From Eledone cirrhosa (Eukaryota), in contig OZ024745.1 in NCBI GenBank assembly GCA_964016885.1, positions 49,042,001 through 49,106,000 on the forward strand: 64,000 nt of DNA. The letters run 5' to 3'. A program made the position numbers and the translations under genes. The first letter of the stretch is position 1; the number at the start of each line of letters is the position of its first letter. Shown piece after piece: positions 26,465 to 61,115 of this stretch. A model generated the notes under the pieces. It was not told the DNA's origin and made no database searches. It saw nothing but the letters and a program-made list of their open reading frames with translations.

Positions 26465-26523
<59 letters not shown>

Positions 26524-26853
26524 TCATCATCATCATTTTACGTCCGCTTTTCCCTGCTTGCAAGGGTGGGACGGGAACTGATTCTGGCTTGATTTCTACA
26601 GCTGGATGCCCTTCCTAACACCAACCTCATTTACAGTGAGTGCTGGGTGATTTTTTGCCGTGGCACCTCCACAACCACTTTGCAGTGGAATGATAGGGAC
26701 CCCAATCCCTATCATCTCATTTCTACAGCTAAGTAAACTGGAGCAAGGTGAAATAAAGTGTCTTGCTCAAGGAAACAACACATCACCCGGCCTGAGAATT
26801 GAACTCACAACCTTTCGATTGCAAAGCCAATGCTCTAATATCTAAGCCATGTC

Positions 26854-26920
<67 letters not shown>

Positions 26921-27524
26921 TAATTAAAATAACAGATTAAAGTTTAAGCAAAGAATCGCCGCTTTCACCCTTAACGGGATCTTCTGAACTAACCAAGTCA
27001 ATCTGTGAACGCAGAAGTGAATATTTAAAAAAACGTTGCAACCGGAGGAAGACAGGAAGACGATACTTTGGTTCGTGGAAACGTTCCCTGGCAAAGAACG
27101 GGAAAAAAAGAATATAATACGTCATTATTTGGAGCGGTGAAAAACAATTACACGCAAAGACAAAACCACGTTTAAGGTATAAAAGATGTCGTAGCCTAAT
27201 ATTCTATTAGGTGGTTCATAGAGACGTTCTCTGGCAATGAACGGAAAAAACGAAGATAATACGTCATATGTGGAGCGTGGAGAACAATTACATGCAAAGA
27301 CAAAACCACGTAAATGGTATAACTGAAGTCATAGACTAAAATTCTAACTAGGAAACCGAATGATTCTCGGCTTCAGAGTTAAGAATAAAGTAAATAAAAT
27401 ACAGAGGTAATTGAAATTAAAAATTAAATAAACACATACACGCATCCATATACGTACATACACAAGCATACGCGAAAACAATCGCCATAGGTATACAAAT
27501 ACACGTACGAACACGCAAAAAAAA

Positions 27525-27558
<34 letters not shown>

Positions 27559-30500
27559 TATACTATAAAGTATGTCTATAGAATCATTTGATAATATATA
27601 TATACACCATTTCCTCTCCCAATTAACATAATCAACCACACAAAAAACCAATTAAACCAGGCTATAAGATTAAAAGGCCCCTATGAAGAAATAGTAGATA
27701 AATAAACGACAGCCATCTATTCGCGATCAACCGCTATAGAATATTTACCCAACATTTCAATAGCACGTGGAAATCGATTAAATATACCGTCAACTATACA
27801 CAATTAGGTATAAAACTAAAGTTAGAAGAAAAAAAATGCATATACACATACCATGATTACGTTTCTACCCTTAGGGTTTCGTTCGCTTTCGGAAATATCC
27901 TATCAAGGATAAATTCTCGAGCTTCGAACTCATCAGGAAACAAACTCACTTGGACAAAGATTTTTCTTAAATGATCCCCGCCAGAAACGAATTCAAAATG
28001 GCTAAGAACTGTGACGTGGCAGTGGTCAAGTCAGAAAGAATGTGATTGGTGCCTGACGGCGAGTGGGCTGGTTGCTAGAAAGCGCAGCCCAATATTGCCC
28101 AAATTGCATCTCAACCTTATGGGAGATTATAAAATATAAAGATTTACATATACACAAACTAGACAAAATTACAGATATATATGTTTTGGCAACCATTCAC
28201 GATGTGGCTCGATGATGAATTAATAAATTAAATAATCAGAGCAATATACTATAAAGTATGTCCATAGAATCATTTGATAATATATATACATCATTTCCTC
28301 TCCCATATATATATTCATTTCATCATTTCATATATATATATATATATACACACAGACACAGATACACACACACATGGAGGCGCATGACTTAGTGGTTAGA
28401 GCATTGGGCTTGCAATCGAAAGGTTGTGAGTTCAATTCTCGGACCGGGTCATGTGTTGTTTCCTTGAGCAAGACACTTTATTTCACATTGCTCCAGTTTA
28501 CTCAGTTGTAGAAATGAGATGATAGGACTGGAGTCCCTATCATTCCACTGCAAAGTGGTCATGGGGGTGCCACAACAACATAAGCACCCAGCCCACAATG
28601 TAAAGTGGATGTGTAGGTGCCATGAAAAAAAGCACCCAGCACTCACTGTAAATGGCATCCAGCTGTAGAAATCAAACCAGAATCACTTCCCGTATGAGCA
28701 AGACAAGGTCAGCCGACCGGACGCTGCCCACAATAGGACAACCCGTCTAACCCATGTTAGCGTGGAAGAACGGACGTAAAATGGTGATGATGATGATGAT
28801 ACATACACACGCACATATAAATATACACAAACATATATGTATGTGCACATGTATCTATCTCTGTGTTTTCATATTGACACAGTTTAAAGCAAGTAGTGAT
28901 GTTTGTTTATGTTCCACAGATAACTAGTTTCATAAACATTATTGCTACATGAAGGGCGGTGCTTTGGCAGTATTGGGAGAGGGTCGGACGCCATGCTTTC
29001 CAGCATAGTTACGTCCCTTTACGATCTGAGTTCAAATCCCGCCGAGGTTGACTTTGCCTTTCATCCTTACGGGGTCGATAAAATAAAGTACCAGTAATGA
29101 ACTGGGCAATTGCTGGCCTTGTGCCTAAAGTAGAAACAATTATTGCTACATGAAAATGAAATATTGATTGGCATCAGAAAAAGTCAATAAGTTTCATTAA
29201 GTCCATACCAGCAAGGAAAAGTAATCTTTTACAGGATGATGATGGTGAAGAGGAGGGGTGTTAAAGTTTTTATTATTGAAAAGATGTTGGTTTGAAAGCT
29301 TTTGATAAATCTATGAGATCCCCTTTTTTGTTCTGATCAATGTAAAATGTGTCTGAGGAATTGTTGGCTTGGACCACCTACTCCCTACTGAGATCAGTGA
29401 AAAAAAAGGGTATTTAGCTGTTAAAAGTATAAACATTAACTGTGAACTTCACCCCCCAAAAAACCGGAAAGAAGTCAATCGTCAGATCAAGCAAATGAAA
29501 CTGTTTCCATTAGTCTTTCCATTGCCAAGCGGTTTGTCAATGAGAGATTGATAAAATAAGTACCAAATTTGAATTAAAAAGTAAGTGGTGGGTTCAATAT
29601 GCCTCAGCATGGCCACAGACTGAAATCAGTAAAAAATTAAAAGATTACCATGTATGGTCACATCTGACTTGATGAATCTCAAGGAAAGTAGGTGTATAGA
29701 AGATACGACTTTATTCTCAATTATAATTGTTTCTACTTTTGGCACAAGGCCAGCAATTATCCCAGTGTATTACTGGTACTTTATTTTATCGACCCCATAA
29801 GGATGAAAGGCAAAGTTAACCTCGACGGAATTTGAACTCAGAATAGCAAGGGATGTAACTCAATGCGTCAAAGCATGGTGTCCGATCCTCTAGTGATACT
29901 GCCTATCCACCGCCTTTATTCTCAATTATAATAGTCCAAAACTTTTGCATGGAGAACAGTAGACAAAAAAAAGCTATATCTTGTTATTATCCATGTTATC
30001 ATTGTCACTACTGTTGTTATCAACAGTAGTGATATAAATGATTCAGTTATTTCAAAGATATATTGATTTATTGCTATTGAAATCTAATCTTTCAGTGTGT
30101 TTTGTCAATATTTATTTGGTACAACTTTAGGAAATAGTTATTAACGATAAATTGAGTCAATACATTAAACATATCTCGGTGATTAAATATCATGGGGAAA
30201 CTTACTCAGTGATTAAATATTTGATCAAGATTTGCTTGTCGTAATGGCGAGCTGTTAGTGTCATTACATTTAGCATTTATACATTCATGTTTACTTAAAG
30301 CCAGCTACATCAATTATGATATGGAGCAGTATTTAAGAGTAATGAAAGTGTTTACTAGATGTGAAATTACTTACACAGACTGAATTAATAGTTTGTAAAA
30401 GCAGACCTGTCAACTCTCCCTGTTGAACAGGGAGATCTCTCACCCACCCACAGTGGGTGGGTGAGAGATGTCTTCCCTTGTGAAAATGGGTATAGCTATC

Positions 30501-33500: not shown

Positions 33501-36500
33501 TCCATCACACATGAAATTGTTTATGGATAGCCAAGATATGTGTGATATTAAAATTTGACAGATGTATTGCTTTGTTCCAGCAATAATACATCACAATTCC
33601 CAGTTTGTGTTTATTTAAAACTTTAAGTAACATCTTGCCAAGATTCTACCATGTAAATCATCATCATCATCATCATCATCAACGTTTAACGTCCGTGTTC
33701 CACGCTTGCATGGGTTTGGACGGGGGTAGTCCCACTTGAGGCAAGAGTGATTGTCTTGCTCGCATAGGACTGTCTGGCAGGTTTTCTACAGTTGGATGCC
33801 CTTCCTAACACCAACCACATTTACAGTGTGGGTCTGGGAGGTTTTTACCGTGTTGCCTACACGGCCACATTACAGCGTGGACTGTGTGTTTTTTTGTCGT
33901 GACACCTACACGATCTCATTTGTTTCGGCCTCGATGGCGCGGCACCAACATAACTTTACATAGAACAGGGTGGTGTGGATGGGGTGGTGGTGGTGGTGGT
34001 GGGACGGGGTGTATTTTGTTAGAGATGCCTACTGGCTGGAGTAGGTTTTACTATATATTTAGGTAAGGCGGGTCTTCTCTGTTACTGAGTACCGCCAAAG
34101 GTCTCGGTCCAGTGACATTGTCTTGGAGGGGTGTAAGTGTGTGATGTCGGAGTTTATCAGCTCGTCCCAGGTTTTTCTAGGTCTGCCTATTCCGTGACTA
34201 CCGTCTATCTTTATTGCCCTGCACTTTGTTATACAGCTATCGACTTTCATGCGCATCACGTGTCCATACCAACGTAGCCTTCTCTCGAGTAAACAACATC
34301 TGATCCCTCTTATCTCTAATTTTTTCCTTAGTTCGTTTATGCTTTGCCGTTCACGTATATTACTGTTACACATCCAGCGGAGCATGCAAGCTTCGTTCCT
34401 CTCTAGTCTGCGTATATCCTCTGCACACAATGCCCAGGTCTCACTGCCATGCAGCATTGCTGTTCGTATGCAGGCATCGTACAACCTGCCTTTCATTTTT
34501 AGGGAGAACCCTTTAGCAGCTAATAGAGGTATAAGCTCTCTGAACTTTTTCCAACCAGTTCTGACTCTAGTTACAGTACTTTCAGAGCACCCTCCCCCAC
34601 TGCTGATTTTATCGCCCAGGTAATGGAAGCTGTCCACTATTTCTATAGAACCCTCTGCGCAATTGAAAGAGCTAGTATTTTGTGGGCACTTGCTGCTACT
34701 TATTGCACCAGAACACCGGCCACATGTAAAATCTATGTTCTTAGTTAGCTTACCTGTGATCCCACTACATCTTTTATGCACCCATACTTTGCATTTAGGA
34801 CATAAAATGGAGTTTCTACCTACGCCTTTCCTACACACCGAGCACGACCATTTCCCAGAAGGGACCGCCGCCTTGTTTTCTTTCCTACAAACTAGTACTT
34901 TGGTCTTAGCCAGGTTAATTTTAAGTCCTTTTGACTCTAGGCCGTGCTTCCATGTTTGGAATTTCTTCTCTAGCTCGGCCATTGATTCCGCTATGAGTGT
35001 CAGGTCGTCTGCGTATAGGAGTTCCCATGGGCAGCCTGTCTTGAACTCCTCTGTTATAGCCTGAAGGGCAATAATAAATAGTAGGGGGCTGAGAACAGAG
35101 CCCTGATGGACGCCAACTTTTACGCTAAACTCTTCACTATATTCGTTGTTAATTCTAACCTTGCTGACTGTTTCTTTATACATGGTTTGTATAGCCCTCA
35201 CAAGCCATTCGTCAACGCCTAGTTTTCTAAGAGCCCACCAGATAATGGAGCGGGGGACTCTGTCGAAGGCTTTCTCCAAGTCGACAAAAGCTAAGTAGAG
35301 GGGTTTACCTTTAGCTAGGTACTTCTCCTGTAGTTGTCGTACTATGAAAAGAGCGTCTGTGGTACTTTTGCCTGACACAAACCCGAACTGCATTTCATCT
35401 AGGTCAATTCTCTCTCTGATTAGTTGCGCTATTACTTTTTCCGTGACCTTCATATAAAATATTTATCTTTCTTTTCTTAATATTACTTCTTTTGTCATAT
35501 GATACTTGTTTAAACACCTATACATAACATACAAACATATATGAGAGTAGGGGAGAAGTGAGAAAATGAAAGGGGGGGGGGAGAAAGAGAAGGGAAAAGA
35601 GAGAAAAAGTGAGATATTTTTATATGGTGTCTTAATATATTGTCTCAATAGTGTTTATTAAATGTATGAAATAATTCTGTATGGTTATAAAAATCTTTTC
35701 GTTTCAGTGTGCTCGAGATGGAGATATTAGCAGCACCAAAATAATCCTTGAGTATATGAATTCCCAGAAGAGGGTGCGTAAAAATATCAACAAACATGAT
35801 GACAATGACTTGAGTCCATTGCATTATGCAGTACGCTATGGTAATATGGACATTGTGCAGCTGCTGGTTGAAAATGGTGCAAGTAAGGAATCTCTAAATT
35901 TGTCCTGCAATAACAACTTGCAATGATTTAGTAGAAAGTGTCTAAAAAAGGGTTTGGTAATTCAAATGTTAATAGTGTCTTCACTTGTGGACTTGTGAAA
36001 ATTTGTAAATTTGTAGACTTTCTTATTCAATGTGATGCTGTCAATTATGCCAAAAATAATGATGGGCATGGTTGTTAATTTATCACATAAAATAAAATAA
36101 AAAAACCCCCAAAAGGGTGCTCTCAAAATATATGATGTAAAAAATATGTTAATAATAAATTAAATGCAGTTAGTAACAAACCTTATACATCACAAACATT
36201 TTCAAAAGCAAAACATTGATAACAGCTATTAAATCATCAATATTCTTGTCTCGTTATTGTCTTTTGATGCAGTACAGGATGTTAAGTGATAAATAACTCT
36301 TATTTCCAAACATGTTCATACATATGAAGGGTAGGGATACAGGTTTTTCTTGCTTTTTTTTGTTTTTACAGTTTAGTTAAGGTAGGAGAACCAGTGCCCA
36401 AGACTGTTTTCATGGTCGCCAAGTCTAGTAGGAGAGAGGAAGGTATTCTCGAACTAGAGATCTGGTTCGAGTGCTTGCAAAATGATAGTAGACTCCAGTA

Positions 36501-40818: not shown

Positions 40819-41245
40819 GTAAATGAGGTTGGTGTTAGGAAGGGCATCCAGCTGTAGAAATCAAGCCAGAATCAGTTCCTGTATGAGCAAGGCACTGTCA
40901 GTCGACCGGACACTGCCCACAACAGGACAACCTATCTAACCCATGCTAGCGTGGAAGAACGGACGTAAAACGGTGATGATGATGATGATATACATACACA
41001 CACACAAACACATATATTTATTTGTCATTTGTTTCTTTTTTTCAGCCTGAATTAGATGAAACAAGTGATGACAGTGCCATATCCTATTTAGTAGAAAGAG
41101 GAGCTGATATAAATGCCCAGGACACCTATGGTAGCACACCATTGCATTTTGCAGCCATGAGAGGAAATGATGCAGCCATCACTCTCTTGTTGACGTTTCC
41201 TCAAATTGAAATTGATGTAAGTTTGCATTGTTGTTGTGTTGGTGG

Positions 41246-41290
<45 letters not shown>

Positions 41291-44200
41291 CACCATTACC
41301 GCCCCCGCCGCCGCTATTACTATTTGGCTTTTAATAAAATTAATCATTAAATTCAATTAGCCATTTTAGATTAAACAGTCTATGAAGATTTAATGATTTT
41401 CTTTCAATTAAAAGTTAAGAAGCCATTGCCCTTGTTATTTTATTGTGATAGCTACTATCCTTCTGTCAACAATTTTATGGATGAACCAATCAAAAGTCAG
41501 CATTTTTTTAAAATGCCGTCTTCCAACTCATTTGAAATTATTTCACAGCGAAATTACAATGTTAGCTCTCAGACTGACAACGTGTCATCAGGAAAATAGA
41601 CTGTGGACACAAATTGTGTATCTATGCACACCTTAACTTTTAACATTCTGTATCACATAAAACTACATTTGCAAATATTTCTTGAAAAGTACAAAACAAC
41701 ACTAAGATGGCATCACATTAAAGCCTTTACTCTAATAGTACAATTTTTCACAATGATCTGTCCATATTATAAATATTTTAGATATTCTCTGCTAAAGCAT
41801 TTGAGGATGTTAGAGGTGCACCCAAACAGAATTAGATTTGGATAACTACAGGAATATTGTCTAGAGTAGAAAACGAAATTGTGCGAAGATATCATTTTTG
41901 TTGAATTGTTTTGTAAAACATGTTAGATTTTCATTTACTTTATTTTATCAGAAAATGGACAAAACCCAAATGACTGCTTTGCATACTGCTGCACGTTACC
42001 GCCAAAAGATTGTTGCAGAAATCTTGATAAATGCTGGTGCAAAGATTCGGTGTTTTGATGATGAGAGATGTACTCCATTATTTTATGCTTGCTTCTATGG
42101 TTGTATAGATATTGTGAATCTATTATTTGATGCAGCTACACGAGAAGATGAATGGATTGTTTGTTATGAAGTAAGTTTGCCTTTTATGCTTCCAAGGTTG
42201 TTATCATATATCATTGTCATCATTTTACTATGTAGGTATGGGATGGATGAAACTATTTGGAGCTGTATATTCTATAGCTTGATGTTATTCATGATGCTAA
42301 CCCCTGTTGTAATAACCCCCTCCTCATAATCATTTTTACATTCACTTTTCTATACAGGTTGGACAAGGTTTTTTAGGGACAGTCTTTTCTACAGTTGGGT
42401 GCTCTTGCTGACATCAACCCATACTTTATATTTTAAGTATAGTATATACCAAACAACAACTCGAAAAGAATTATATGGTCAGACACATGATTAATCAAAC
42501 ATTTTGTCAATCCATTTCTCAGCAAAAAATACACCAACCTCATTTATGTCTTCTTTATTACCCACCCAAAAGAATTTGTTACTAGCATCTTTTCTAGTGA
42601 TAAGATGTACCTCTTGTACACAAATCACTATTTCTCTGTGATAATGTTTCAACTACCTCAGAGGATCATCCTCTCATAGTTCCAACATTCAAAGTGGCTA
42701 CACAAAATATAGTCTGAATTGAAATATGGCAGGATGAAGACCTGGGTGGCCTACGAGTCCTGACCCTACCTTTTAACAACACCTTCAACTAAACATTACT
42801 AGACCATCTCAAATTATATATAAAATGGTCTAGTGACTTTTGAGCCACCCTATACAGTGTGCTTTCCAAGGCATTGGTTGGGTGTACTGTACAAGACATA
42901 TGCCCAAGGTGCTTTGCAGGGGGATTGAACCAGGAACCATGTGGCTGCAAAGAAAACTTCTTAACCACACAGCTATGCCTGTACCAATGCTATGCTGGCC
43001 TATGTTATGAAAATCAAATTTCTTTTCTCATTCTTCATCTTCATCAGTATTTAAGATCTATTTGTCCATGTTTGCATTAGTTAGATGTGTTGTCATATTA
43101 TGAGACAAGTCTGATCAGGTGACCATGTCTTGCTCATAGGGATTTATTTTTTGTCTAGATTTCTATGGCTGGATGCCTTTTCTATCTTCAATCACATTAC
43201 GGTGTGGACTGGGTGCTTTATTTCTCGAGTCACCACCACCACAACTTTGCAGGGTGATCTGGAGGCTTTGCGAACAGTTAGAGTTATGCAAAGACAACCT
43301 GCTTTCAAAGATGTAGTTAATGTAATACTTTTGTTGAAGCAGTATATACTTCAGTATGTTAATTATTGAATTGCTTGAATTTTTTTATTTATTAATTTTC
43401 TTCAGGAGAAATTAACCATATCATTAACCCTAACTTTTCTCTCTTTTAGTTGGTTGCTGATAAAAATATAGATGGAAAAACTTGTCTTCATGCTGCAATT
43501 GATGGAGGTTTTGCTGAGGTTGCACAAATATGTTTAATGCGAGGTAAATAATTAAATTCTTTTCACAGCTTTAGTCATCCATCTTATTACATAGCTTAAC
43601 ATCTTATCTTGTGGAACACCAGGAATTTTTAATAGAATCCATTGCTACAGATCCTTACAGCTACAATGTCATAAATTTTTTAAATGCCCCTGGTATAAGA
43701 ATTGATTAATAAAATGATTCTGTTCTGTTTTGTTTTGAATATTCCACCATTATTCTTTTCTTTTGATTGTTTTAGGTGCAGATGTAAATGGCGTAGAATC
43801 AGACCGGTCCATGCCACTCCATCGAGCTGCGATGTCTGGTAATATGGAATGTGTAAAATTGTTAGTTGATAATGATGCTAGAATAGATGCCTATGATGAA
43901 GACCAATCAACACCACTGCATAAAGCTGCATTATATAATCATTATAATGTAGTTGATTATCTTATAAACTGGTATGGTTACTACTTAGTTTTTTTCTAAT
44001 CATTATTTCACCTTACAGCAGAGTATAAAATGCCATGGACATAATTCACTTGATATTTGAGAATCTTCATAATCACTATTTTAGGAGAAATTATTTTCCA
44101 AGAGAGGTTAGCCTGCTGGGGAAGGTGTATATTATCTGTGAGTTGTTATGCCTGGCAGTGACAGGAAGTGCTTTTCCAGTGACAGGAAGTGGGATTTGAA

Positions 44201-47200
44201 CTTAGAATGCATAGAACTAGAACAGATACCACAAAGCATCCCTTTATACTCTTTAACAATTTTTCCAATCTACTGCTCTTGGATTGTTAATTCCATGCTA
44301 GTGTGGAAGATGGACGTTAAACGATGATGATGATGATGATGATGATTTATCAACTCCCCAAAAAATGAAATACAAAGTAGACCACATTGGTATTTGAACT
44401 CGGAGTGCAGAGGGATGGAATAAGTACCAAGGCATTTAATCTGACACCCTAACAACTCTGCCTATTCATCACCTGCTTAAGTTTAGCATTCAACATTAAA
44501 TTCAATGCTACAATGAAGTCCTAAATTATGTTTTCTACACCATCATGTATTATTGAGTGGCTGCAGGTAGATATGTTGATTCTGGTGAGTGATGATCCAC
44601 CAAGGGATTACTACAATATAAGAGATTAGATCAGATGATATTTACCAATGCCAATTTGGTATGGTGTCATGTGCAGAACAGCACTTCAACCTCAACAACA
44701 ATAGCAGTCTACAGATGTAACATCTGTAGCTGTGAGTGCAGATCTTGGAATGGTTTGAGCTCACACATGAATGTACATACCAAGAGAAGTTGCCAGAGGA
44801 ACATCATCATTGATTTGACAGACCACTGAAGAAGTGTGTACATGTATATGTGTTTGTGAGTGTGTGGGCATCTGTTGGGAATTACAAGGCGAGCGTAAGG
44901 TTCAGGAAATAAAGTTACATGAACTTTTTCACATCCAATTATTTTTTGAGTAAAACACTGCAACTTATCTGCCAGTATATATAGTAATTTAGAATTAATG
45001 CTTCATATTTTCCTGATACTTTAGAATTATACGTTTATAAATTATACATTTATCCCACTTTACAATTAATTCACTATAATTTCTTATTCTCTTTGTGTTC
45101 TTAGTGGTGCTCGTGTTAACAAGAGAGATAGTGACAGTTATAGTCCACTGTTGTTAGCAGCACTTCGTGGCCATATTGAGACCATTGAGATATTAATGAA
45201 TGCTTCTGCAGACCCTTTAGCTGTGGACAAATATGAAAAAACGGCTGTTTTTCTGGCTTCAGAAGAAAACAAAGTTGAAGTTCTCAAGGTTATTTTTTCA
45301 GTTTCTAAACTTTTGATTTTAACTTCCTTCTCCTTTGCATTCTCCTCATCGTCATCGTCCTCCTCCTTTCTTCGTTTTCTTCTTTTGTTCTTTTTCTTTT
45401 TTTCTTTTTCTTTTTTCTTTTTCTTTATTTCACATTCTTTATTTTTTTCTTTTTTTTCTTTTTTCTTTTTTTCTTTTTTTCTTTTTTTCTTTTTTTCTTT
45501 TTTTCTTTTTTTCTTTTTTTTTCTTTTTTTTTCTTTTTTTTCTTTTTTTCTTTTTTTCTTTTTTCTTCCTTCATTTTTTTCGTCTTTTTCTTTTTTTCCT
45601 TTTCTTTTTTTTCTTCTATATGATGTGTTAGATATGTTAGATACGTTATATTAAACAGGTTTACATTATATTGAAACTTAATATTAAATAGTCTAAAAAA
45701 ATTATAATCATATTAATAGTAACTCATCTCAGATATTTAAATTGAATGATTTTTGTGAATGATGATCATTGATTATAGGCCAATTAATATTTATTAACAT
45801 TGTTGACTGTTGCAATTCTCTTTTCATTTTGCCATAACTTATGGAGTGTCTATATCCCCATCATCATCATTATCATTAGCACTATCATTGTATATTGTAT
45901 CTGTTATTTAATATTCAATGAAGATTTCATCTATTTTTTTTTTTAGAAACTTTTGGAATATCCTGGAATGAAAGATCAAATCCATGCGAATGATCAGTAT
46001 GGCAATCGACCATTACATGTGGCAGCACAAGAAGGATTCACGGAGATTTTGATGGTAACATTAGCTAATTACAAATGTATAATCTCTCTATATAGTGTCA
46101 CTATTACTGCTGTTGAAGTAGTAATAAAAAGGAAAAGAGTCAATCATTAGATTGGACCAAGTAAACTATATTTCAGTTGATCTCTCTATTGCTGATACTA
46201 TCTACCTCTTGCATCTCCTGGTAGAAAGAAGCAAGATTTGAACTCAGAATGCACAGAGCCAAGTCAGATACTGCAGAGTATCTTGTCTATCTCTTTAACA
46301 ATTCCACCAAATCACAGCATCTGGACTTTATCAATACTGAAAGGTTGAAAGGTACAGTTAACCTTGGCAGGATTTGAACTCAGAATACACAGAGCTGAAA
46401 CAAATACTGACTCTCTACTGACTCTGCCAATTTACTGCCATTGTAGTAATAAATAAGTATTTGATTTTGATATATTCATTAATTTCACTGTTCATTGGAA
46501 GACTATTGTTACTCTGATGAAAAATTGTTGCTTTACTTCATTTAGTTTTGATTTTTTAATGGTTTAGTCCAGGAGGAATAGTGCTCATGAGATTGTAGGG
46601 TGGAAGGGTAGTGTTTTATAAGAAAAAGACCCATTGCCTGGTTTAACACTGTCACCTGGTGCGTGAATATCTTTAGCAGAGTCTACTCTTTTGCAAGTAT
46701 TCAGGCCTCTAGTTTGGGGATACCTTCCTCTCTCTCTATCAACAGTCTTGGAGGCCCCCAAAAGGCTTAGAAACACTGTCTGCCTCGTTTTGATCAAACA
46801 GGAAAAAATCTACATGATCTTAAAGAAAAAAACTTCACTTAAAAGATATTTGAAAACAAATATAAAAAGTAATTGTTTAATTATTTTTCAGATTCTTTTA
46901 AATCATGGAGCTGATATTATGGCCGCAAATGATGATGAAGAAACACCAATACATCTAGCCTCAAAATGTGGACGAACTAAGTAAGCTGTCTTCTTTACAC
47001 TTTTCAGTAACTGTAGCTAATAAGGAGTGGCTAATAACAATAAGGTGTCTAGTTGTTAGAGCATTGGATTAAATGCCTCACATTATTTGTTCTAGTTCCG
47101 GTGGATTGGCAGTATCGGTAGAGAGTCGGACACCATGCTTTGAAGCATAGAGTTACGTCCCTTTATGATCTGAGTTCAAATCACGCCGAGGTTAACTTTG

Positions 47201-50200
47201 CCTTTCATCCTTTCGGGGTCGATAAAATAAAGTACCAGTAATGTACTGGATAATTGCTGGCCTTGTGCCTAAAATAGAAACAATTATTTGTTCTAGCTCC
47301 CTGCACTCTGAATTCAAATACCACAGATGTCAATATTGCCTTTCATTGTTTCAGGGTTGATAAATAAAGTAGTAGTACTGGGAGGTGGATTTGTAGGACT
47401 GTTAAAACATTGGACATGATGCCTTGCAGTATCTCTTTCACTCTTTTGAATTCTAAGTTTGCCTGCAAAAACACTGATGCCAAGATGTATTAGTGCTTGC
47501 TTTTCTCTTGGACAGCATTTGTTCGATCAGCCAGTATTTTTTGCTTCTGCCTCTAAGCCTTACAAGAATACATGGCTAAACATCATACCTGTGTGGTCAA
47601 CTGATATCTAACTAGACTGCAAGCATCTCTGTATTGACATTTCCCTCATGGTCAGTCTCCGAATTGGCAAATAACACAAAGGATATTGTTGCTCTATGAT
47701 AAATGCTTTGAGAATCCACCCAACTTAGTGTCTGCTTTTTCACACAACATGCCACTCTCAACGAGATTGTTAAACATGGCTTACATGTAGCTAGCTTCCT
47801 GTCACAGCTGGAATCCATGTGGGGAAGGGAGGGTAGATCATCATCATCATCATCATCATCATCATTATCAAGGTTGTTAAATATGGCTTACATACAGCTA
47901 ACTTCCCATTACAAGGAGAATGCAAAACACCAGACAACATTACAGCCTTTCTATTTAGAGGTAGTAAGTCATATGATATAAAATATACACTAAATTCACT
48001 TCTTTTATCAGTAGTTTTCATTTTTCTCTCAACAGTGTTGTCCGTGCACTTGTTAAAGCTGATAAATCTGTAGTGAAATCAGAAGATGAAGACTCTAATA
48101 CACCATTGCATATTGCTGCACTTAATGGACATGACAAAGTTGGAGAAATTCTCATAAACTTTGGAGCAGATGTTGGAGCAGTGTAAGTAAAAAAATTGAA
48201 TGAATAAAAATAAAAATAGAAAACTAGTTTATTTTGGCACCATCAAAGTTTTCTGAATGTTCACTTTCTTATAAACTTATTTATCTCTCTCTTTCTCCCT
48301 TCTCTCTCTCTCAAACGAAGGTGGATGAGTGGAGTAATACTCAGAGATAGGAAGATAAAAAATGATTTGCAGAGGATGATGGGAATAGAGCCAGTGATGA
48401 GTGTTGTGTAGTGAAATGGAATGAGATAGTTGGGTCATGTGTTGAAAGATGAAAGCAGCTAGATGAGAGGAGAGATAGAAATTAATGAGGAAAGAAGTAA
48501 AGTAAGGGGAGGACCAACATAACTAAAGATGATGGGGAAGAGATAGAAAAGGGCTTGCAGGGCTAACCCCTACATTAGCAGGAAAAATAACCTTACATTA
48601 AAGCATCCATTGCTGTTCGTTTGTATCTCTGACACAACCTCTATCTCTCTCCTTCTTTCTCTCTCCATCCACTTAATCAGAGCTTTTGTTCTTCTAGACC
48701 AGCCAGCAACAATGTCTTGCTTACATTTGTTCTAAATAAATACAAACATATAGAGATACTTTTAAAGTCTTGCATCATAGAACGAAGGGTGGTTTCAGAC
48801 ACTATGCTATCAAAAGGGTTAATTTCAAAATCAAATCAAATCTTTCAATGATCATTTATAAAATATTTATCATTGTTTTTCTTTTTTGCTAATAATTTCA
48901 GTAACAATAACATGTGGACTCCACTGGACTGTGCTGCTGCAAATGGATGGACTCACATGGCTTCAATACTTTTAGATTCTGATAGCTTAGTGGATCCAGC
49001 AGATAAATCTAAGGTTTGTATATTAGACACTGTAATGACTTTGTGCTACTCATCAACATCACTAGCATTGTCATCATTATCATCATCATCCTGACAAGTG
49101 TGGAAACGTTTGTAAGCAAGATGTAGCCTCCTTAGCTCATCTGAGAAGTCAGTAGCTTCACTTGAGTACTGACTCAGCCTGTGATGACCAATCCAATTCT
49201 TGCTAGTATGAAAAACATATTAAATGATGATGATAATGATGATGTTGGAGTAAAACATTTTGTTTTGAGTTTGGTTATTTTTGTGAAGAGAGAATGGTGA
49301 GAAGATCTAGGATCATTGAACTGTGTATAATTAAAACAGTTGTAGCAAGAAGAGTTCTAGCCTTTTTCATCTTAAGTAGAAAAAAATTACTTGTAAAATA
49401 TTAATACTTTTCTGATCATTTACTAATCATACGTTTCTAATTTGTAGACAACTCCCCTTCATCTTGCTTGTCGTAATGGACACTTACGTATGGTGCGGCT
49501 CCTACTGGAACGGAATGCCAGTGTAAATCAACGGGACTCTGATGGAAATAATTGTCTTGATTTGGCAATTGATAATAATAACAAGTAAGGGATTCCAGTA
49601 TGAACTATTGTTTCCCCCAGAAACGTTTGTGTTACTTAAAATGCCATTTTTTGTTTCTTGTTTTAGTCACAGTATCTGGATTATAGTATGTTTATTTATT
49701 CACTTTACTGTTTATTATAACCCAAATAAATGGTGGATTGGCAGTCAATGGACTGTCTGACAAATATATAGCAATATTTGTTCCAGCTCTTTACATTCTG
49801 AGTTCAAATCACATCAAGGTCAACTTTACTTTTCATCCTTTGGAGGTTGATAAAATAGAGTATCGACTTTTCCATCCCAATAGATTGTTTGCCTTGTGCC
49901 TAAATTAAAAACCATTATAACATAGATTCAGTATTATCATCATTGCCATTTTTACATCTGTTGAACCCATGCTAGCATAGGTTCAACAGATCCTCTTCAA
50001 AACAGCATTTTACTACTTGTATTCTTTTCTCGTCTATATTGTGAGGTTCAGCATCCTGAAATTAGCTTCCACCCACATCTTCCATACTTTCCTTCCATTT
50101 GGAGCTCTTGGCATCCCTTCTTCAACTGACATCATCTATACAAGTTACATCAACATACCAGCACAGCTTTCTTTCTTGCACACCATATCTGATTCCCGTT

Positions 50201-53200
50201 ATACCCAGTTTTTTTTTATCTCAACTCACCTCTGCTTCATCGTTCAAGCACTCTAGTGTTACACATCCAATGGTGTATTCTTCCTTCATTTTTTTGTCAT
50301 TTATTCAATTACAGATTGAAACTTAGAATCTATTGTAATTATGATACACTGACCCATAAGTAGTATTAACTAACTAGGACATGTGTTCAAATCCTTGCGT
50401 TACAACATCACAGCTTTCAATAGAATTTTTATTATACATTTAGGTGGAATAGAGATTTTTTAATAATATGTCTTAAGTCATATACAAGGTTAAGTTCAGT
50501 GTGCTGTGAATGGAATTGTAAGCTCCTAGATGATTAGATGTTTTTTTTTCATTTATAAGAAAAACTAAGCATTTAAAATTTCATCTGTGATTTTCATTTG
50601 GTTGATTTGTAACAAGTGTTTCTTAATCCATTCATATAGTAGAGGTTTTTTTTATTATCCCTAAATACTGTTATATACCCAGTTTTTGGTATGGACATGT
50701 GATGCGTATGAAGGATGACAGCTGCATAAAAAGGTGCAGAGCATTAGAAGTCAAGGGAAACTGCGGAGTGGGGAGATCCAAGAAGACCTGGGATGAGGTG
50801 ATAAAAGCTGACCTTACCCAATTACACCTCTCAAAGGCGATGACACACGACCGTGACCTCTGGCGTCATGCAGTAATACAGAGTACCCGACCCCCCATGG
50901 GTACAAACTGAAGCATATAGACAATATGCCCTCACACCCTCCCACTGCAAGGTGGTCGTGGAGGTGCCACGGTAAAAAAGCACCCAGCCCACACTGTAAA
51001 GTGGACGTGTAGGCGCCATGGAAAAAGCACCCAGCACTCACTGTAAATGAGGTTAGTGTTAGGAAGGGCATCCAGCTGTAGAAATCAAGCCAAAATCAGT
51101 TCCTGTATGAGCAAGGCATGGTCAGCCGACCAGACACTGCCCACAACAGGACAACCCGTCTAACCCATGCTAGCATGGAAGAACGGACGTAAAACGGTGA
51201 TGATGATGATGATGATGACTGTTAACAGAAATTTGTGACTGCTTTACACTCACGGTGAATTGGCAGTATCGGTAGAGGGTTGGATTATGCTTTCCAGCAT
51301 AGTTACGTCCCTTTACGATCTGAGTTCAATTCCCGCTGAGGTTAACTTTGCCTTTCATCCTTACGGGGTCGAAAAAATAAAGTACCAGTAATGTACTGGG
51401 TAATTGCTGGCCTTGTGCCTAAAGTAGAAACAATTATTTTAATGATTCCATTTTTCAGCTTCATTCCTCAATGTATTCAGAAATATTACTGGATGGAACA
51501 ATTATATATACATGGCGTCCCCCCATAATATATACACACTTCAACAGTATTCTAACAAAGTGTATATACATTTATTGGGACACCCTGTATATTATACATT
51601 CATGCCTTTATTCAGCATGCCCACTTATACATTTGTATAACATTCTGGAAACATTGTTAATACGACCATATTTTATCCAATTTCAGTGATGTTGCTATGC
51701 AAATTGTCAGTGACAAGAGATGGGAAGAAGCCATGCAAAATGAAACACTAAACTTGAAAACAGGATATCGCCAAACCCCAATGAGAAAATTAATCAGAAA
51801 AATGCCAGGTGAAAGAGTGGTATTTTTTGTATATAAACCTGTATTAAAATCTGATACAGTATTACTTTTTACACTTTATTATTGATCTTAAATTCTTAAG
51901 GGCGGTGGATTGGCAGTATCGGTAGAGGGTCGGACGCCATGCTTTCCAGCATAGTTACGTCCCTTTACGATCTGAGTTCAAATCCCGCCGAGGTTGACTT
52001 TGCCTTTCATCCTTACGGGGTCGATAAAATAAAAGTACCAGTAATGCACTGGGTAATTGCTGGCCTTGTGCCTAAAGTAGAAACAATTATTGATCTTAAA
52101 ACTATTATTACTATTAATATATGGGTTAGAAGAAACTGAGAATACCAACATAGAGCATTATAGTATGTCAATATAGCAGCTATAGATAGTATCAGTATAG
52201 GGTATTATAATGATGTTAACATAATCATTTAATAGCCATGAAATGTATGGCCAGTAATGTACATCAAGATATAAGCTTCCAGCTGGCTGAGACTACATAA
52301 TTGCTTCAATTTCCTGTTGAAGTTATTATATTTATGCCATTAAGATTTATGCCATTGATAAAAGAAAGAAGGCTATAATATCTGCCTTTTTTAACTTTTT
52401 GTCTATTGTAAGTAACACAGATCAATATCCTTGGAAAATGATTGATAGTTTTAGTCTTAGCTTCTTCCATGCCTTTTGGTGTATCGAGCAGTAAGTAGTC
52501 ACTAATGGCTACAATCAGGGGCAGCTTCTTGACGTCTGTGCCAAGTGATGTTGGCTGCCATCAGGTCTTTTTGGAACGTTTGTCACCAGGTGATCCTGGG
52601 GCATACTCGCTTCCATTTGCCTCCAGGTGGAGTCCAGTTCATCGCTGTTTTCGAATGTCATTGCCCAGGTGCAGAATATGACCACCTAGGTGGCACTGTT
52701 GCAATATAGATAATAAAATTATAAGATTTTCTCAGATTTTCTCAGATTTTCTAAGAAAGAAAAAATAGCATGTAGCAAAGACTGGTTGAAGATGATATTA
52801 TTGAAGTATTGGAGGTGAATATAAAGGATCTTTGATATATGACAGAAAATTGGCAGAGTTTTAAAGCATAGGTCAAAATGCTTTGTATTTATTCTGGCTC
52901 TCTGTGCCAGAAATCAAAGTTTAAATCTTACTGATATTAATTTTGTTTTTCATCCTTTTGGGGGGTTGATAAACTAATGTACCAATCCAAGGTGGTGGAT
53001 TGGTGAAATTGTTAAAGCAATGAACATGATACCTTGTGGTATTTGTTGTGGCTCTTTGCATTCTGAATTCAAATCCTGCTGTGACCTGCTTTAGTAGATA
53101 TAATCTGTTGCCCAAATTAATATTATTAACCCAGTCATGGATAAAATGTGGCCCGTTTGGCTTTCTGAATGGCACACCTAATTTCATCTTATGATGAGCC

Positions 53201-56200
53201 ACATCCTATGCAACCCATTGCTTGAAAAAGGTTAGCCATGCCTGGTCTAATCCGTGGGTATCTCTCAACTAAATACCAGGGTTTTTTGTCCAGGGTTCTG
53301 CTAATCTTTTAAGGTGGATAAAAATATCTGAGAATATATCAGTAAAGTAACACAATTCTATAACAAGGATATATTGAGGTACAAGAAGAGTAAAGGAGTT
53401 TTGATTTGAATAAATATGCATTCAACAAATATGTAGAGAAGTATAAGCCATTATGATAAGGGATAAATAAAAAATTAAAATGATAGATAACAAAATATGA
53501 ATTGGTAATACTAAATCTAGTTAGAAATCTGCTATATACTTGGTTTAATTTATGTGTAAACCTATATTTTTATACAGAAGTTGCAGAGAAAGTACTTAAC
53601 CAATGTATTTCCACATCTAATAGTCCAGACAGTCATGACTATTCTATAACTTTCACATATAAATATTTGGATGACACCTATACTGACTGGTCAGCTAGTA
53701 AGGGCAGTGATCAAGCTTCAACGTCAGGTATGTACCATATACAATTAAAAATTAAGATTTTGATATATATATCTCCATGTAATTTGAATTAATGAAACCC
53801 ATAAAAAATAAAGATATATCATTATTTTGGCCCTTTATGGTCTGAGTTCAAATCCTGCCGAGGTTAACTTTGCCTTTCATCCTTACGGGGTTGATAAAAT
53901 AAAGTACCAGTGGAATAATTGCTGGCCTTGTGCCAAAAGTAGAAACAATTATTTTATATAGAAATGACTTCTACAGGATTAGAATTGTTTCATTCGTATG
54001 AAACAGTTCTAGTTTTGTAGAAGTAATTTTTATATAAAATATTGATATATATATATATTCTTTATACCATTGTATTGAGTGCCTTTTTCAGCTATTGTCA
54101 TTTCCTGATCCCCAGCAGGAATGCACCACCCTTATATATATATAAAAAGCACCCAGTTCACATTGTATAGAGGTCATGTTGGTGTCATGACAAAAAGCAC
54201 TCTGACTACCTACCAGTCCAGTTGATCTCGCTTCCTCTCTTGCTTATTAATACTTGTTCCCATCAACTTGTATTAAGTTATTCCATTCCTTCCTAAGGTT
54301 ACTAACCACACTTATGTGTGTGGCTTTGATTGTAAATTTTTACCATCCCATATCGGTATGTTGATATTTCTTCTTGTTTTGTTTTTTTTCCTCCAACGTT
54401 TGTTGTTGACTTCCCGAAGAGCTATCGAGGAATAGTTATTGATGCAATGTGGTGAATAGTCCTATCTTTAATGCATTCGAAACTAAAATGATCCACAGAA
54501 GACAGCCGATGAGTGGGAATTGTCTTTGAGTTTGTTTCTTATAAGTTTTCTGTTCCCTTTTCTCCCATTTGTTTTTTGAATAATATTTCCTAGTATCCAC
54601 ACAGCCCTATTTTCAAATCAACTATATATATATATATATATATATATTTTATTTTTCATTCTTACAGGTGGTTTCTATCATTGTTTATTGGTTTCTATAT
54701 ATTGTGGGAGTATTGTTAAGAGGTGTATGCTTGTTCAAAAGGCGTACAACTGCATTTTAGATGTCAAAATATTAAAATTTCACACGTGCATAGTTTCTGT
54801 TTACCAAATCTCACTCACAAGGTATTGGTCAACCAGAGACTATGATAGAAGGCATTTGCCCAAAGTAGTACACACTAATATTAAACTCTGAACCGTGTAG
54901 CTTAGAAGTGAACATCTTAACCATACAGCCATGCTAGCACCCATTTTCATTGTTGCGTTTCTCATCTTATTAATTTGTTATTCAGGTTTAACATATGATC
55001 ATGACTTTAAAGTGACACCAGAAGCAATTCCTTACACAAAAAATATGTCTATGTTGAAAAAGAACCATCCTTTGAACATAATGGTAAACATTTAACTCTT
55101 CATTTTAACAATATTTATTTCCTCTGTTCTAGTAAATCATGTTCGAGAAACAGATGTATCTTTTCAAGGACGTCATTGGCTCTGGCATTTTCAAGTTCTT
55201 TCATTATTTATCATTTAATGACTGTTTTCCCTGCTAGTTGAATGGATTTTCACAGACCATGTCTGTACTGAAGTGGGGCCACTGACTTCCCAGACAGGCC
55301 GGGGCTTTGTATTCCCCTTATATATGGTTCTGCATTCTACCAAGTACATTTTATTGTGAGACCAGCACTAGAGAGGTTGTCGTGTCCTTGACAGAACTGG
55401 AGGGTTCTCCCAACTGTTTGTTTGGCAAGTTTTCTATGGCTGGATTCCTTCCTATTTGTCTATATATTTCTTTAGCTCAACTTGAATACCCCTGTATGTT
55501 ACAAGAGGTGATTCAAAGAGTCAGCACTAGAAAGAACATCTGTCAGTAAAACATTGCCTTAAAAAGAACCCAGTGATGCATATTAAGCTTGTCATAGTGC
55601 TGACAAGACTAACCCTTACTTGTGCAGAAGAAATGGCCTTAAAACACATTTAATGAAAATCAACTTGTATCATTTTATGAGTTGTGTGAATGCAACAATT
55701 CTGAGTGAATCAATATTCCAAACAAATTGATGTTTTTCAGTATCTCTAAAGCCATTTCTACAAAATATAGTGAATTCATATGATTGCCTTTATTTTAGGT
55801 TTATTTATACCTAAAATAAATTTTTGGTCTTGAAGGATGTGCAAAGGCCATGGACACAGACCCTTCCTTCTGACAAATAACTATTAAAAATTAAGTTTTT
55901 TATTCAAGCATGTGTTTTTAAGACTACATTATACAACATCTCCTTCACCTTGAGGGAGCCATTTCTAGTAGCTTGTGTGGCAATGTAAAAGCTCCTTCAT
56001 TGGTTCATTGTAGTGTACCATAGCCTTCTATATATATATATATGGACTCATAACTTTTGATGGAATCTTAGGGGTGAACATAGTCAATTTCTTCCAGAGA
56101 AAGAGAGAGAGAGAAAGAGAGTGGAAGTGAGAAAGATAATAGAGAAGGAATCAATCTCACTATGTTGTCTATCCAACTCACCAATATAATGGTTTAAAAC

Positions 56201-59200
56201 ATTTTTTTATTCCCATTTAGGCCGAGAATAATCAAGAAATCTTACTATCTCATCCTGTTGTTAAACAACTCTTGAGCTATAAATGGTCTTCATTTGGTGC
56301 ACCTTTATATTATGTGAATCTCTTCATCTATTTGATCTTTCTCGTCTTTTTTACTGGCTACATTTTACAAGCAAAGCCACCTGAACCGTAAGTGTCTCGT
56401 CATGTTATTATTTTGTCATTGCATTTAAAGTTAGATAAAAAAAAACGTCAGGCAATCAGGTTGTTGTTGATGCTGCATTTTCTTTTTTAATATTTAGTCA
56501 GCGAAGGGCAGTGGGTTGGCAGTATTGGTAGAACGTCAGACAACATGCTTTGTAGCATAGAGTTACAACCCTTTACGTTCTAAGTTCCAATCCTTCCAAG
56601 GTTAGCTATGCCTTTCATCCTTATGGGGTCAATAAAATAAAGTACCAGTAATGTAATGGAGTCTTTAATCGATTTTCCCCTCCTCCAGAATTGTTGGCCT
56701 TGTGCCTAAATCAGAAACCAAGATTTAGTCATCAGAGAGTGAAGGGTAGTGCCATAACCTTTTTCAGCACCTTTGACACATACAGGAAGGAGGAATGTGT
56801 TATACTTTACTATTTAAAAAAATATATATATGCTGTGTGCATCCTGGCTTTTAAGAATAGATACAGTGTCCCTGTGTACCATAAGAGGTGACTAGAATGG
56901 TTGGTGTCAGGAGGGACATCTGGTTTTAAAACTTTGTCTCAAAACATTCTGTCCAACCCATGACAACATGGAAAATAGGACATAAGCTGTTGATATATCT
57001 GAAACTACATTGGGAAATGTAATATTAGAAACATAATGCCGGGAAAAACATACAATGGTCAAAGATGGAACAGCTTTGGATATAAGTTTGTTCAGTAAGG
57101 ACTGACTTGGGGACAGTTGTTCAGTGACAATAAATTACCATACACCGTCCATTCTCAAATGAGAATATTTTAACTCAGTATTATAAACCAGAACATTATG
57201 TATCTATCTTATCTGTTTCTGCAGTCAGGATAAATTATGGTAGTGTTTTTTTATTTTTTTTTATTTTGAGTTTCTTTAAATTCTTTGTTACCATATTTCT
57301 TACAAAAAATACGGTCTATGATTTTCAAACAATTTTGAAAATAATCAAGAATTTGACAGGATTTAGTAATGTAATCAACTTTTTCAATACTTAGCTAGTG
57401 TTTGGAGCTTAATCTGGCAAAGGGTCTTACATAAAAATTTGAAGGAAGGTTTTCAGATAAATATAAACACTTTAAATAAAACATTTAAAAAAAAAATCAA
57501 ACATTTTTTTTAAAATCATAGAATGAGGGGTCGATTCAAAGGGGGGGGGGGGTACCAAAAGATTTAATTCTCTTTCATTGAAGAATGTTCAGTGAAAATT
57601 AGAATGAATAAATCTTGAAAATGTTACTATTTCAGTGGAGCTGTCTACTATGATTCACAGAACAACTGCATTGCTACTGAGATGAATTCGGGCTTCTTTA
57701 TCAACTATGGGAAATATGTGGTCATTGTTCTTAGTGTACTTATGTTATTACGAGAGGTGAGAACATAGGCAAAAAGCCTTATTTCATAATATTGAAGCTT
57801 TTCTACTTACGTCATTTAATAGTGTTTAAAGATGTTCTAGATCATCACCACCACACTACTACCATCACCACCACCACCACCACCAACACCACTGTCACCA
57901 CCAACACCACTACCACTATCACCCCAACCACCACCATCACCATGACATCAACCACCGGCACCACTATCACTATCACCCCAACCACCACCATCATCACATC
58001 ACCACAAATATGATTGAAATAGTTTATGTTCAGATTTGCCAATAATTTATGATGTGTATTGAACCAATTCTTTTTTATGTCACTTCATATTTTTTTTTAA
58101 TATGCATATACATATTTGTTAGGTTTTCAATAACACAAACACACCATGATTCAGAAAAAAGGCATATATGGACCCATATATGCCTTTATACATTTAACCC
58201 TTTAGCATTTAAACTGGCCATATTCGGCCAGAATTCTCTCACCTCTTTCAAACCAGCTGTAACCAGCTGCTCATACTGATGTTAAGGTATTGTTCTCAAA
58301 ATAAATAACATCAAAATCTCATAGATTCAATATTATGTGAGATAATTATGTGAGGTAAAGTGTTTACAATGAAAATATAATAATAAATATAGAGTAATGT
58401 AAATGTTAAATGGTTAAGATATTATTTTAAAAAAGGTTTTTATTTTCTTACTGTTTAATATTTCCAATTTTATATTTCAGATCTTCCAGTTAACTCAAGC
58501 TGGGCTTGGCTATTTGACCTATATAAATCTTCTAGAATGGGTCACCTACATCTTTGCTATTCTTTTTGTCCTTGGCTTTAGTGAATGTCAACAGAAAATA
58601 GTTTATATTGAGGTAAGACAGATTGGAGTAAATTATCTAGTAGTCTATTTTAAAGCTGTCACACTGAAACTGCAGCGGTTTCATTTATTTTGTTCTTTTA
58701 TATTCAGTTTTCTATCCCAGCAAGAGGAGAGTATTTTCCCTTCTTGTTGCAAGTTTGAACTTTTGGATATTATTATCAGAATTATTTTACAAATAGATGC
58801 CTTCCTTACTGCCTACCATGGTGTACTCATAAAATGGAGTTTATAAACTACTAAGATAGTTTGCTGGAATTGATAAGTTCTATTGCCCAGAGTACTTTAC
58901 AAATATTACAAGTAGTTGTAGGGAAAATATAATAGTAAGAATACAGGTGCAGGTAAAGGGAGCTGTTACTTTACCTTTTTTATTGGCAACAATAGATTTG
59001 TGTGTGTGTGTGTGAAGCACATATGCTGTTTGCTAATGAGATATGGGCATTGAATATTGACTACCTGCAAAGGATAGGAAGAAAGGTGATGAGTTTAGTC
59101 GATTGGATATGAAATGTTAATCAATGTAAAACTTGGAACACAAAAGTGCTGAGAGAATGACTGAGTATTAGCAGAAGAGATGCTTGCACTAGTTGAAATA

Positions 59201-59979
59201 TATGATAAGTAAATAATTGTTTCTACTATTGGCACAAGGCCAGCAATTACCCAGTACATTACTGGCACTTTATTTTATCGACCCCGTAAGGATGAAAGGC
59301 AAAGTTAACCTTGGCGGGATTTGAACTCAGAATGGCGTCAAAGCATGTGCTTGATAAAAACATGTATGTTTAATTTGAAGGATTCTCATAGCAGAGGAAT
59401 ACTGAGGAAGACATAGGAAGAAGTGAAGGTGGCAGATCTCAGACTTTTGGAACATACATGCAAGGCTTTTAAGAGAAATTTTGCAGGATAGAGCAAAGCT
59501 TCTTTTTGACTCAGTGGAGGATAGTCCTTTCAAAATTCAAAGATGCTGAATTTTTTTTTCTTGAGCGGTATGTCAGATGTTCACATAGCCCTCCTTGTCT
59601 CTATATGTCCCAGCCTTATTTACTAGTTAAATCCACCTCTTATAGACACTACTTACACTGATATGGTATTATGCAGCCCTGTCTAGCCCATGCCAGTATC
59701 CACAATTGGATGGAACATCAAAATGATAATGCTGGTGTTTCATGTTTAGCCATAATTTTATATCTTTTATATTTTTCTCATAATTTACATTGTAATTTCT
59801 ATATATCAAGACTTCTGGTGCTAAGGGGATCTGGAGGCTTAAGCCCCTCCAATAATTTGTTTCAATATAATTGTGCTTTGGTTTTTTCTACACTGATTTC
59901 CTATTGATTCTAAATATGTTAGTATAATCATGTTTTTAATTTCTTCCTTAGACTTGTATTGGTGATAAAATGTGTGAGC

Positions 59980-60013
<34 letters not shown>

Positions 60014-60740: not shown

Positions 60741-61115
60741 GTAAGTCTAGTAATTTTTCACTTTACATCTTTTGTTTATACATTCAATCACCTGACCTAT
60801 ACATTTTGTCTTCATTGACATTTGTATCATAAATTCATTGCAGTACAGTAAATAATTAATCTCTAATTTCACTGCATGGTGACTACCTAATGTGGCAATA
60901 TATTGTTGGTAAATTCTGAATTCAAATTCAATTTATGGATATGTATATATGTAAATCCAACCATAAACAGTCGATTGACCTCATTTGCTTAATGAGTGGA
61001 TCTCGTCAAATCGGACTGAGGAAACAATATTTCCATTGATCTTTCTAATTGCTAATACTATCTACCAGTCACAAATCCAGGCAGAAGGAGCAATGTGAAA
61101 TAAAGTATATTTCAA

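Follow-up and report, generated by a model that had tools for sequence, protein, structure and literature searches.

Does a short, ORF-free stretch that carries a hammerhead motif between two (TA)n tracts represent a mobile RNA of its own, or is it a leftover of a larger element? The question is raised by positions 27561 to 28305 of the window, as we call the whole stretch of 64,000 nucleotides from the Eledone cirrhosa assembly that was analysed here. The original prediction left two options, a retrozyme or a solo pLTR of a Penelope-type element (PLE), and it is the former that is better supported: we find a hammerhead retroelement of the retrozyme kind, which at no examined locus is the pLTR of an RT/GIY-YIG ORF. 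The second fixed 3' end, the asymmetry of the inversions, the sister subfamilies and the rod described below had not been noticed in that prediction.

We read the stretch, with a probability of about 0.85, as one of many copies of a 686-bp non-coding repeat with a predicted hammerhead, likely a non-autonomous PLE copied into (TA)n by a borrowed RT/GIY-YIG protein. Among non-autonomous PLEs we place it with the animal non-LTR retrozymes, a class that is itself known. The family bears on how PLEs make pLTRs, tails and inversions, and on whether hammerheads make circular templates, questions treated in PMC11167929 and PMC3846280. Short, ORF-free and high in copy number, it separates cis signals from protein, and what are likely its copying footprints are unusually clear.

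The window copy and its predicted RNA

The RNA sense is the minus strand. Unit positions (pos) are window coordinates minus 27560, and the unit is read from pos 686 to pos 1. The window copy is laid out as follows.

27561..28305, minus strand: whole insertion, family A, with 61 nt of an upstream unit (28305-28247) and then one full 686-nt unit (28246-27561)
27561..27566, minus strand: fixed 3' end, site 1 (inferred RT start 1), merging into the target (TA)n
27583..27858, minus strand: predicted imperfect rod hairpin of about 250-270 nt, conserved core at about 27807-27619, apical loop motif CGCGAA at 27725-27720
27861..27941, minus strand: predicted type I hammerhead with an extended 49-nt stem II region, cleavage predicted after GUA, between 27866 and 27865
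27995..28049, minus strand: putative internal promoter block with CCAATCA, TTGACCAC, CACGTCA and GCCATTTT
28134..28246, minus strand: 113-nt segment found as an optional 3' tail in other copies, 28134 being the second fixed 3' end (inferred RT start 2)
28247..28305, minus strand: partial upstream unit, the apparent terminal repeat, 28305 being the variable 5' end of the window copy
27542..27560, no strand: (TA)n target on the 3' side of the insertion, the sequence being TA-rich again at 28306-28348

The direct repeat of about 60 bp that was said to bracket the hammerhead is present, as is (TA)n on both sides. Its two parts, 27561-27621 and 28247-28305, are 93% identical over 61 nt (BLAST) and lie 686 bp apart, the spacing falling from 686 at the left end to 684 at the right end because the second repeat copy is short of one TA. 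The insertion, which itself has no tail, comprises a full unit and part of a second, as a reverse transcript longer than one unit would leave and as had been proposed. The 60 bp do not form a defined terminal repeat, since partial second units span from 34 nt to more than one full unit. Given the PLE architecture of the copies, with fixed 3' ends and variable 5' ends, the 61-bp repeat is the chance 5' end of the window copy inside a second unit, and no LTR. The length of 686 bp is that of the unit in the window copy, other family A units measuring about 650-710 bp. As first noticed, there is no long ORF: no stop-to-stop frame of at least 100 aa overlaps 27561..28305.

Directly beside the insertion lies another high-copy repeat, with a 140-bp internal tandem (26980-27510), and similar sequence adjoins copies in loci L034 and L063. 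On either side of the element stands a copy of a very high-copy SINE-like repeat, the two being inverted relative to each other (26520-26880 and 28354-28800), and a 112-bp satellite at 61191-63549 (21 copies, 99% alike) apparently arose from a piece of that repeat. The window also holds a 467-aa LINE RT fragment with a PHD finger inside (34059-35462, minus strand) and, at 40989-60818 on the plus strand, ankyrin-repeat exons followed by hydrophobic channel-like exons, presumably those of a TRPA-type gene.

The hammerhead reads, along the minus strand, as stem I GUUUC (27941-27937), CUGAUGA (27936-27930), the 49-nt stem II region, GAAA (27880-27877), stem III CCC-UAA-GGG, GUA (27868-27866) and GAAAC (27865-27861), and the predicted 3' cleavage product starts at pos 305 (27865). 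Folding of 27845-27960 gives a three-way junction of type I topology, with a z of only -1.9, and the core pattern has 2 matches in the window for 0.35 expected. Rfam yields no match, hammerhead or other, in the window at gathering score and, over the unit at E<=5, three chance-level matches only, none of them a hammerhead. The support for a real ribozyme is therefore covariation and not a family match. The core could be anchored in 14 of the 15 chosen subfamily copies, one with an altered cleavage triplet being dropped, and in these 14 copies the paired cells number 68/70 for stem I, 62/70 for stem II and 41/42 for stem III. Pairing after shuffling of partners, a control that ignores relatedness, is lower (61.6, 51.6 and 34.9, respectively), and several pair types alternate. 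The core is changed in subfamilies C and G. Within family A it decays like the rest of the unit (0.056 vs 0.059, 93 units), which is expected for dead copies and is no support for ribozyme function. Elsewhere, 8/9 frog retrozymes failed to cleave in vitro (10.64898/2026.07.22.740005), and PLE hammerheads are described as often weak (PMC4209133).

The 305 nt from the predicted cleavage site to site 1 fold into a long imperfect rod, with a z of -4.5 in sense and -0.9 in antisense. Seventeen copies folded singly, among them one of family B (L090), gave z values from -0.6 to -7.9, with 11/17 below -3, the values for the upstream 300 nt being unreliable where these enter flanks or inverted arms. 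RNAalifold on 15 subfamily copies returns 40 pairs, with 95.3% of cells paired and double changes at 6 pairs, and pairing is kept through both G-U and double changes. Each measure is reached by 0-4 of 500 shuffles, and slid controls have at most 48% of cells paired; the structure was derived from the same alignment, so that these controls lean in its favour. The apical stem varies in sequence yet pairs in most copies, around a mostly conserved CGCGAA, and subfamily C, which has a 140-bp duplication in the apex region, folds differently. The predicted rod may be a protein-binding scaffold, and its conservation makes it a concrete candidate for the signal bound by a PLE protein.

Upstream of the ribozyme, the minus-strand motifs first reported are in place: CCAATC at 28049-28044, CACGTCA at 28018-28012 and GCCATTTT at 28002-27995. 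We take them to be NF-Y, CRE and YY1 motifs. CACGT-like and GCCATTTT-like motifs persist across subfamilies, a finding that is circular for GCCATTTT to the extent that part of the subfamily set was found via the GCCATTTT block, and CCAAT is lost in B and D. The order CCAATCA..TTGACCAC..GCCATTTT recurs upstream of ORF1 in an autonomous two-ORF RT/GIY-YIG family, in 9/10 loci from L171 to L180 and also in L394, with 0/200 shuffles of L171 matching a pattern that was written after both sequences had been seen. This common order lends circumstantial support to the idea that the element has a promoter of its own.

Copies, insertion footprints and template

When the unit was searched by BLAST against its own genome, a 3.0-Gb animal assembly, 4793 first-look candidates were obtained and 40 were scored, full-length matches elsewhere being 92-96% identical. 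A 25-mer at the 3' end of the unit has 658 exact genome matches (control 0) and is exact in 32/65 copies from loci chosen without it; together these give a rough figure of about 1,300 family A unit ends and of the order of 1,000 insertions, many of the 65 copies having been selected because they resemble the window copy closely. A 21-mer from within the unit, common to sister subfamilies, has 977 matches, and genome searches for sister families B and C return 2841 and 2300 candidates. About ten subfamilies were seen, 67-85% alike, and the same closed unit recurs across this clan. The unit is thus not single-copy but dispersed in roughly 1,000 or more copies. Tandem copies, which were also looked for, exist as dimers and trimers (e.g. 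L014, L021, L029, L056 and L076), and most copies are shorter than those with two complete ribozymes.

Two rearrangements were also noted among the loci. L264 (C1:303.20-303.21 Mb) is an array of repeats of about 1.8-2.6 kb, each with a rearranged family B insertion, that is, a local tandem amplification after insertion. In L032, L054 and L102 the same foreign repeat of about 0.9 kb, with what we take to be Helitron-like ends, interrupts the unit near pos 244-257, either as a preferred target site or as cargo of one master copy.

The ends of the copies were studied in a sample (S1) made of the first 100 of the 658 25-mer places, all on contig C1. Once five duplicate loci had been removed (four with one insertion seen twice, one a segmental duplicate), the final merging rule gives 78 insertions, a looser one 82. 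Direct insertions have their 3' end at pos 1 in 60/78, a tail ending at pos 574 in 2/78 and another end in 1/78; 14/78 are head-to-head inversions of one pos-1 arm and one tailed arm, and 1/78 is another inversion. An arm ending at site 1 is present in 60 direct and 15 inverted insertions of the 78, and a tail in 14/15 inverted vs 2/63 direct ones. S1 was chosen by a 3'-end probe, hence the test was repeated on the first 30 of the 977 internal-21-mer places, where 26/29 insertions end at the same two sites, 113 nt apart. Circular permutation, one of the features to be checked for, is therefore not seen, the 3' ends being fixed. In a junction-picked sample of 51 insertions, tail-enriched by design, 17/21 inversions combine a plain and a tailed arm. 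The 5' ends are free to vary, partial second units breaking off anywhere between pos 34 and a point past one complete unit.

TATA lies at most 10 nt away on both sides in 86/129 insertions, a count made without a random-site control. No clear target-site duplication was found, a shared flank word being seen in 2/129 insertions, both microsatellite-like, and contigs of four sequencing runs over 26900-28900 gave no empty site, swamped as they were by other copies. Both start sites overlap UAUAU, which could pair with the target.

Mobilisation by a Penelope-type enzyme, as first proposed, agrees with these footprints: fixed 3' ends, partial tandems, tails, inversions and (TA)n. Partial tandems, inverted 5'-truncated copies, a one-sided tail and a bias to (TA)n are described for PLEs (PMC8557442, PMC3846280), in which the tail is the stretch bounded by two internal RT starts and the protein cleaves and extends both target strands (PMC11167929). 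That a plain arm is almost always joined to a tailed one fits a scheme in which both target strands are primed, at two RNA sites, with one start site probably used per strand. Self-priming on an antisense template has been put forward as another route to inversions (PMC3846280), and the present counts are compatible with it too.

The following course of events can be envisaged. An internal promoter would transcribe a tandem copy, and the hammerhead may cut the RNA to unit length. The PLE protein of an autonomous family would bind this RNA, perhaps via the rod, and cut (TA)n DNA, after which the cut DNA end would prime reverse transcription internally, usually at site 1. Synthesis would then extend towards the RNA 5' end over a variable distance, in many cases beyond the unit junction, leaving a short direct repeat such as that in the window. 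The other cut strand, when primed too, would use site 2 and give an inverted arm with a tail.

Divergence is 4.5% between tandem copies of one insertion (74 pairs, 16,978 sites) and 4.6% between inverted arms (20 pairs). In variant columns, cells disagree in 7.8% of cases for tandem copies and 10.3% for inverted arms, against 45% for random pairs, and this low disagreement shows that the two parts go back to a single template lineage, their differences having built up after insertion. Neighbouring units are near-identical in a few insertions (L029, with 0-2 differences in 658 sites, L014 and L078), which may be young or local duplications.

The template of the same element might have been an RNA circle of unit length, closed covalently by the hammerhead through cleavage and ligation, around which the RT would run once and then slow down; we put the chances of this slightly below even. 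Arms cross the unit junction freely, and tandem copies show no clear or strong recurrent differences of the kind expected from a linear master. In the first round 36/58 survive past the hammerhead, among tailed arms 19/29 and in the second round 11/33 (first vs second, Fisher p=0.01); the extra second-round stops are scattered over 71-289 and do not cluster at the second cleavage site. This drop is compatible with a circle and strand displacement, and also with falling processivity or the loss of long direct repeats by recombination. The natural 679-nt stretch from cleavage site to cleavage site, folded as a circle, has a z of -4.6 (20 shuffles), although this value is likely owed largely to the rod. 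There is a weak excess of 5' ends at pos 290-310 (8/74 at risk, p about 0.02 uncorrected, other windows being as high), beyond which a hard RT stop at the cleavage site is unsupported; the few 5' ends at the site itself (3/69 at risk, pos 303-307) would be expected of linear cleaved RNA. Circles of animal retrozymes have been demonstrated (PMC7229834), but the PLE PAc works with unprocessed RNA in vitro (PMC11167929).

Autonomous partner and rival explanations

The genome is rich in PLEs, one RT query giving 26,004 candidates and GIY-YIG 10,596 first-look candidates. Known retrozymes often resemble the pLTR of their partner. In 95 PLE loci no autonomous PLE with a homologous pLTR was found, a point against our reading; unit and rod matches there are nested clan copies, and a model of the rod found only clan copies in 100 sources. 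Nor is there a consistent link to an RT/GIY-YIG ORF, the other check that had been proposed: among 185 unit pieces, a PLE ORF lies at most 150 nt away in 9 loci (8 distinct), of mixed family and orientation.

Several candidate partners were rejected. The two-ORF family with a 784-aa frame (L171-L180) lacks a hammerhead in a motif scan and does not resemble the unit by BLAST, the promoter-like motifs being all that the two have in common, and the hammerhead candidates of the L063-type, Hydra-like and Poseidon-like families differ from that of the unit. Where clan copies lie beside ORFs (L063, L101, L110, L183, L189, L266 and L392), (TA)n or other repeats stand between them, or the ORF element is interrupted. 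In L040 and L275 the 5' end of the unit is head-to-head with PLE ORF pieces, but these belong to two families, so no partner is named. Pfam confirms RVT_1 and GIY-YIG only in the PLE ORFs, and the clade names used here (Neptune-like, Hydra-like, Poseidon-like) are our provisional readings of motifs.

Other observations were made at these loci. At the junctions of L040 (1-1485) and L275 (1642-2400) with 5'-truncated PLE ORF pieces there is little or no TA, and they are possible chimeric co-insertions. The family of L171 (5499-9148; also L172-L180) is young, with near-identical copies in tandem and inverted arrangement, and a 455-aa frame overlaps its 784-aa RT/GIY-YIG frame in another phase, a possible frameshift. 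L254 (9160-9901) and L383 (6950-8001) hold two more unrelated tandem hammerhead units, with no ORF in the stretch seen; that of L383 is 459 bp long, and that of L254 has CACGTG and GGCCATTT upstream of the ribozyme, as in the clan. More than one parasite clan of this sort may therefore exist in the genome. In the flanks of the loci examined there are numerous distinct type I hammerhead families, mostly in TA-targeting repeats, and several (L101, L219, L028, L267, L110 and L131) have a long stem II and a CC..GGUA stem III.

Could the copies instead be remnants of an autonomous PLE family, either solo pLTRs or 5'-truncated ends, with an ORF that escaped the search? In their ends, tail and inversions they match autonomous PLEs, solo pLTRs have been described (PMC3846280), and the 95 PLE loci screened are few beside the 10,596 GIY-YIG candidates. 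However, arms longer than one unit run into another unit and never into coding sequence, the same closed unit is kept across about ten subfamilies, and the 108 non-simple 5' flanks contain two PLE protein matches, from two families. Moreover, in tblastn nine PLE protein pieces matched units A, B and C weakly and over short lengths at most, and the best match overlaps the unit itself. We therefore give this explanation a small chance. A satellite or minisatellite, spread by DNA recombination or as rolling-circle DNA, would leave the hammerhead vestigial and make the rod a relic of an old inverted duplication. Near-identical neighbours such as those of L029 do point to some local duplication, but the copies are for the most part single and polar, their 3' ends fixed and their 5' ends truncated, and the rod, which persists through G-U and double changes, forms on the ribozyme strand alone; the hammerhead stems covary as well, so that this origin appears very improbable.

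A non-autonomous PLE copied by a borrowed protein remains our preferred reading, and it could be carried further. The clan might consist of promoter-bearing circular RNA parasites of about 680 nt, circularised by the hammerhead and selected at the RNA level for a 250-nt rod and its conserved apical loop. A PLE protein dimer would copy them, using two fixed sites of a single template to prime both of the cut DNA ends, and no sequence kinship with the pLTR of the helper would be involved. This fuller picture is rather unlikely as a whole. Were it true, the copies would be an in vivo record, a thousand strong, of how PLE tails and inversions originate, and the family would offer a portable non-coding RNA signal for PLE-driven insertion.

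Comparison with known systems

A search of the open literature found no description of the family or of such a rod. Octopus PLEs were annotated without mention of ribozymes in the available part of PMC13282606, the supplements of which mention neither retrozyme nor ribozyme, and squid hammerheads were counted only, as far as the accessible text of PMC6962438 goes. The family, the rod and the measured asymmetry between tail and inversion may be unreported, although the family may already stand in a catalogue such as Repbase or Dfam.

The closest likeness is to animal non-LTR retrozymes, which have a non-coding unit, one type I hammerhead and low GC, occur as head-to-tail copies, coexist with PLEs and are proposed to be mobilised by them (PMC7229834; 10.64898/2026.07.22.740005). 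Mobilisation by PLEs via circles was already proposed by Cervera and de la Pena in 2020 (PMC7229834). The unit had been thought longer than those of animal retrozymes, but its 686 bp fall within the range of 51-972 bp given by Li et al. in 2026 (10.64898/2026.07.22.740005). Compared with the arrays described for these retrozymes, the clan consists mostly of dispersed partial or 1.x-unit insertions, with a clear PLE tail and inversions, a stem II region of 48-59 nt and a long rod outside the ribozyme; any circular RNA of the clan is hypothetical, and it has no matching autonomous pLTR in the 95 PLE loci.

EN+ PLEs and their pLTRs (Penelope/Poseidon, Neptune and Hydra; PMC8557442, PMC3846280, PMC4209133, PMC11167929) resemble the clan in the partial tandem, the head-to-head inverted 5' copy, the optional one-sided tail, the hammerhead, the targeting of AT or (TA)n and the two fixed 3' ends. 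Unlike them, the clan has no ORF, and its tail is 113 nt long where 30-40 nt are published. Its RT starts overlap the target-like UAUAU, whereas the start site of PAc is described as not homologous to the PAc target.

The non-autonomous Chlamys PLEs, such as MRC1, likewise have pLTR-like repeats and multicopy head-to-tail insertions; their 3' end resembles that of autonomous partners, and most lack a canonical hammerhead in the description available (PMC8557442). The clan differs in having a hammerhead and in showing no partner similarity in the 95 PLE loci. Plant LTR retrozymes are similar in size (about 700 nt between ribozymes) and in their self-paired RNA, but they carry type III hammerheads in true LTRs, with PBS and PPT, 4-bp TSDs and Gypsy partners (as reported in 10.64898/2026.07.22.740005 and PMC7229834), whereas the clan has a type I hammerhead, a repeat of variable length and no TSD seen.
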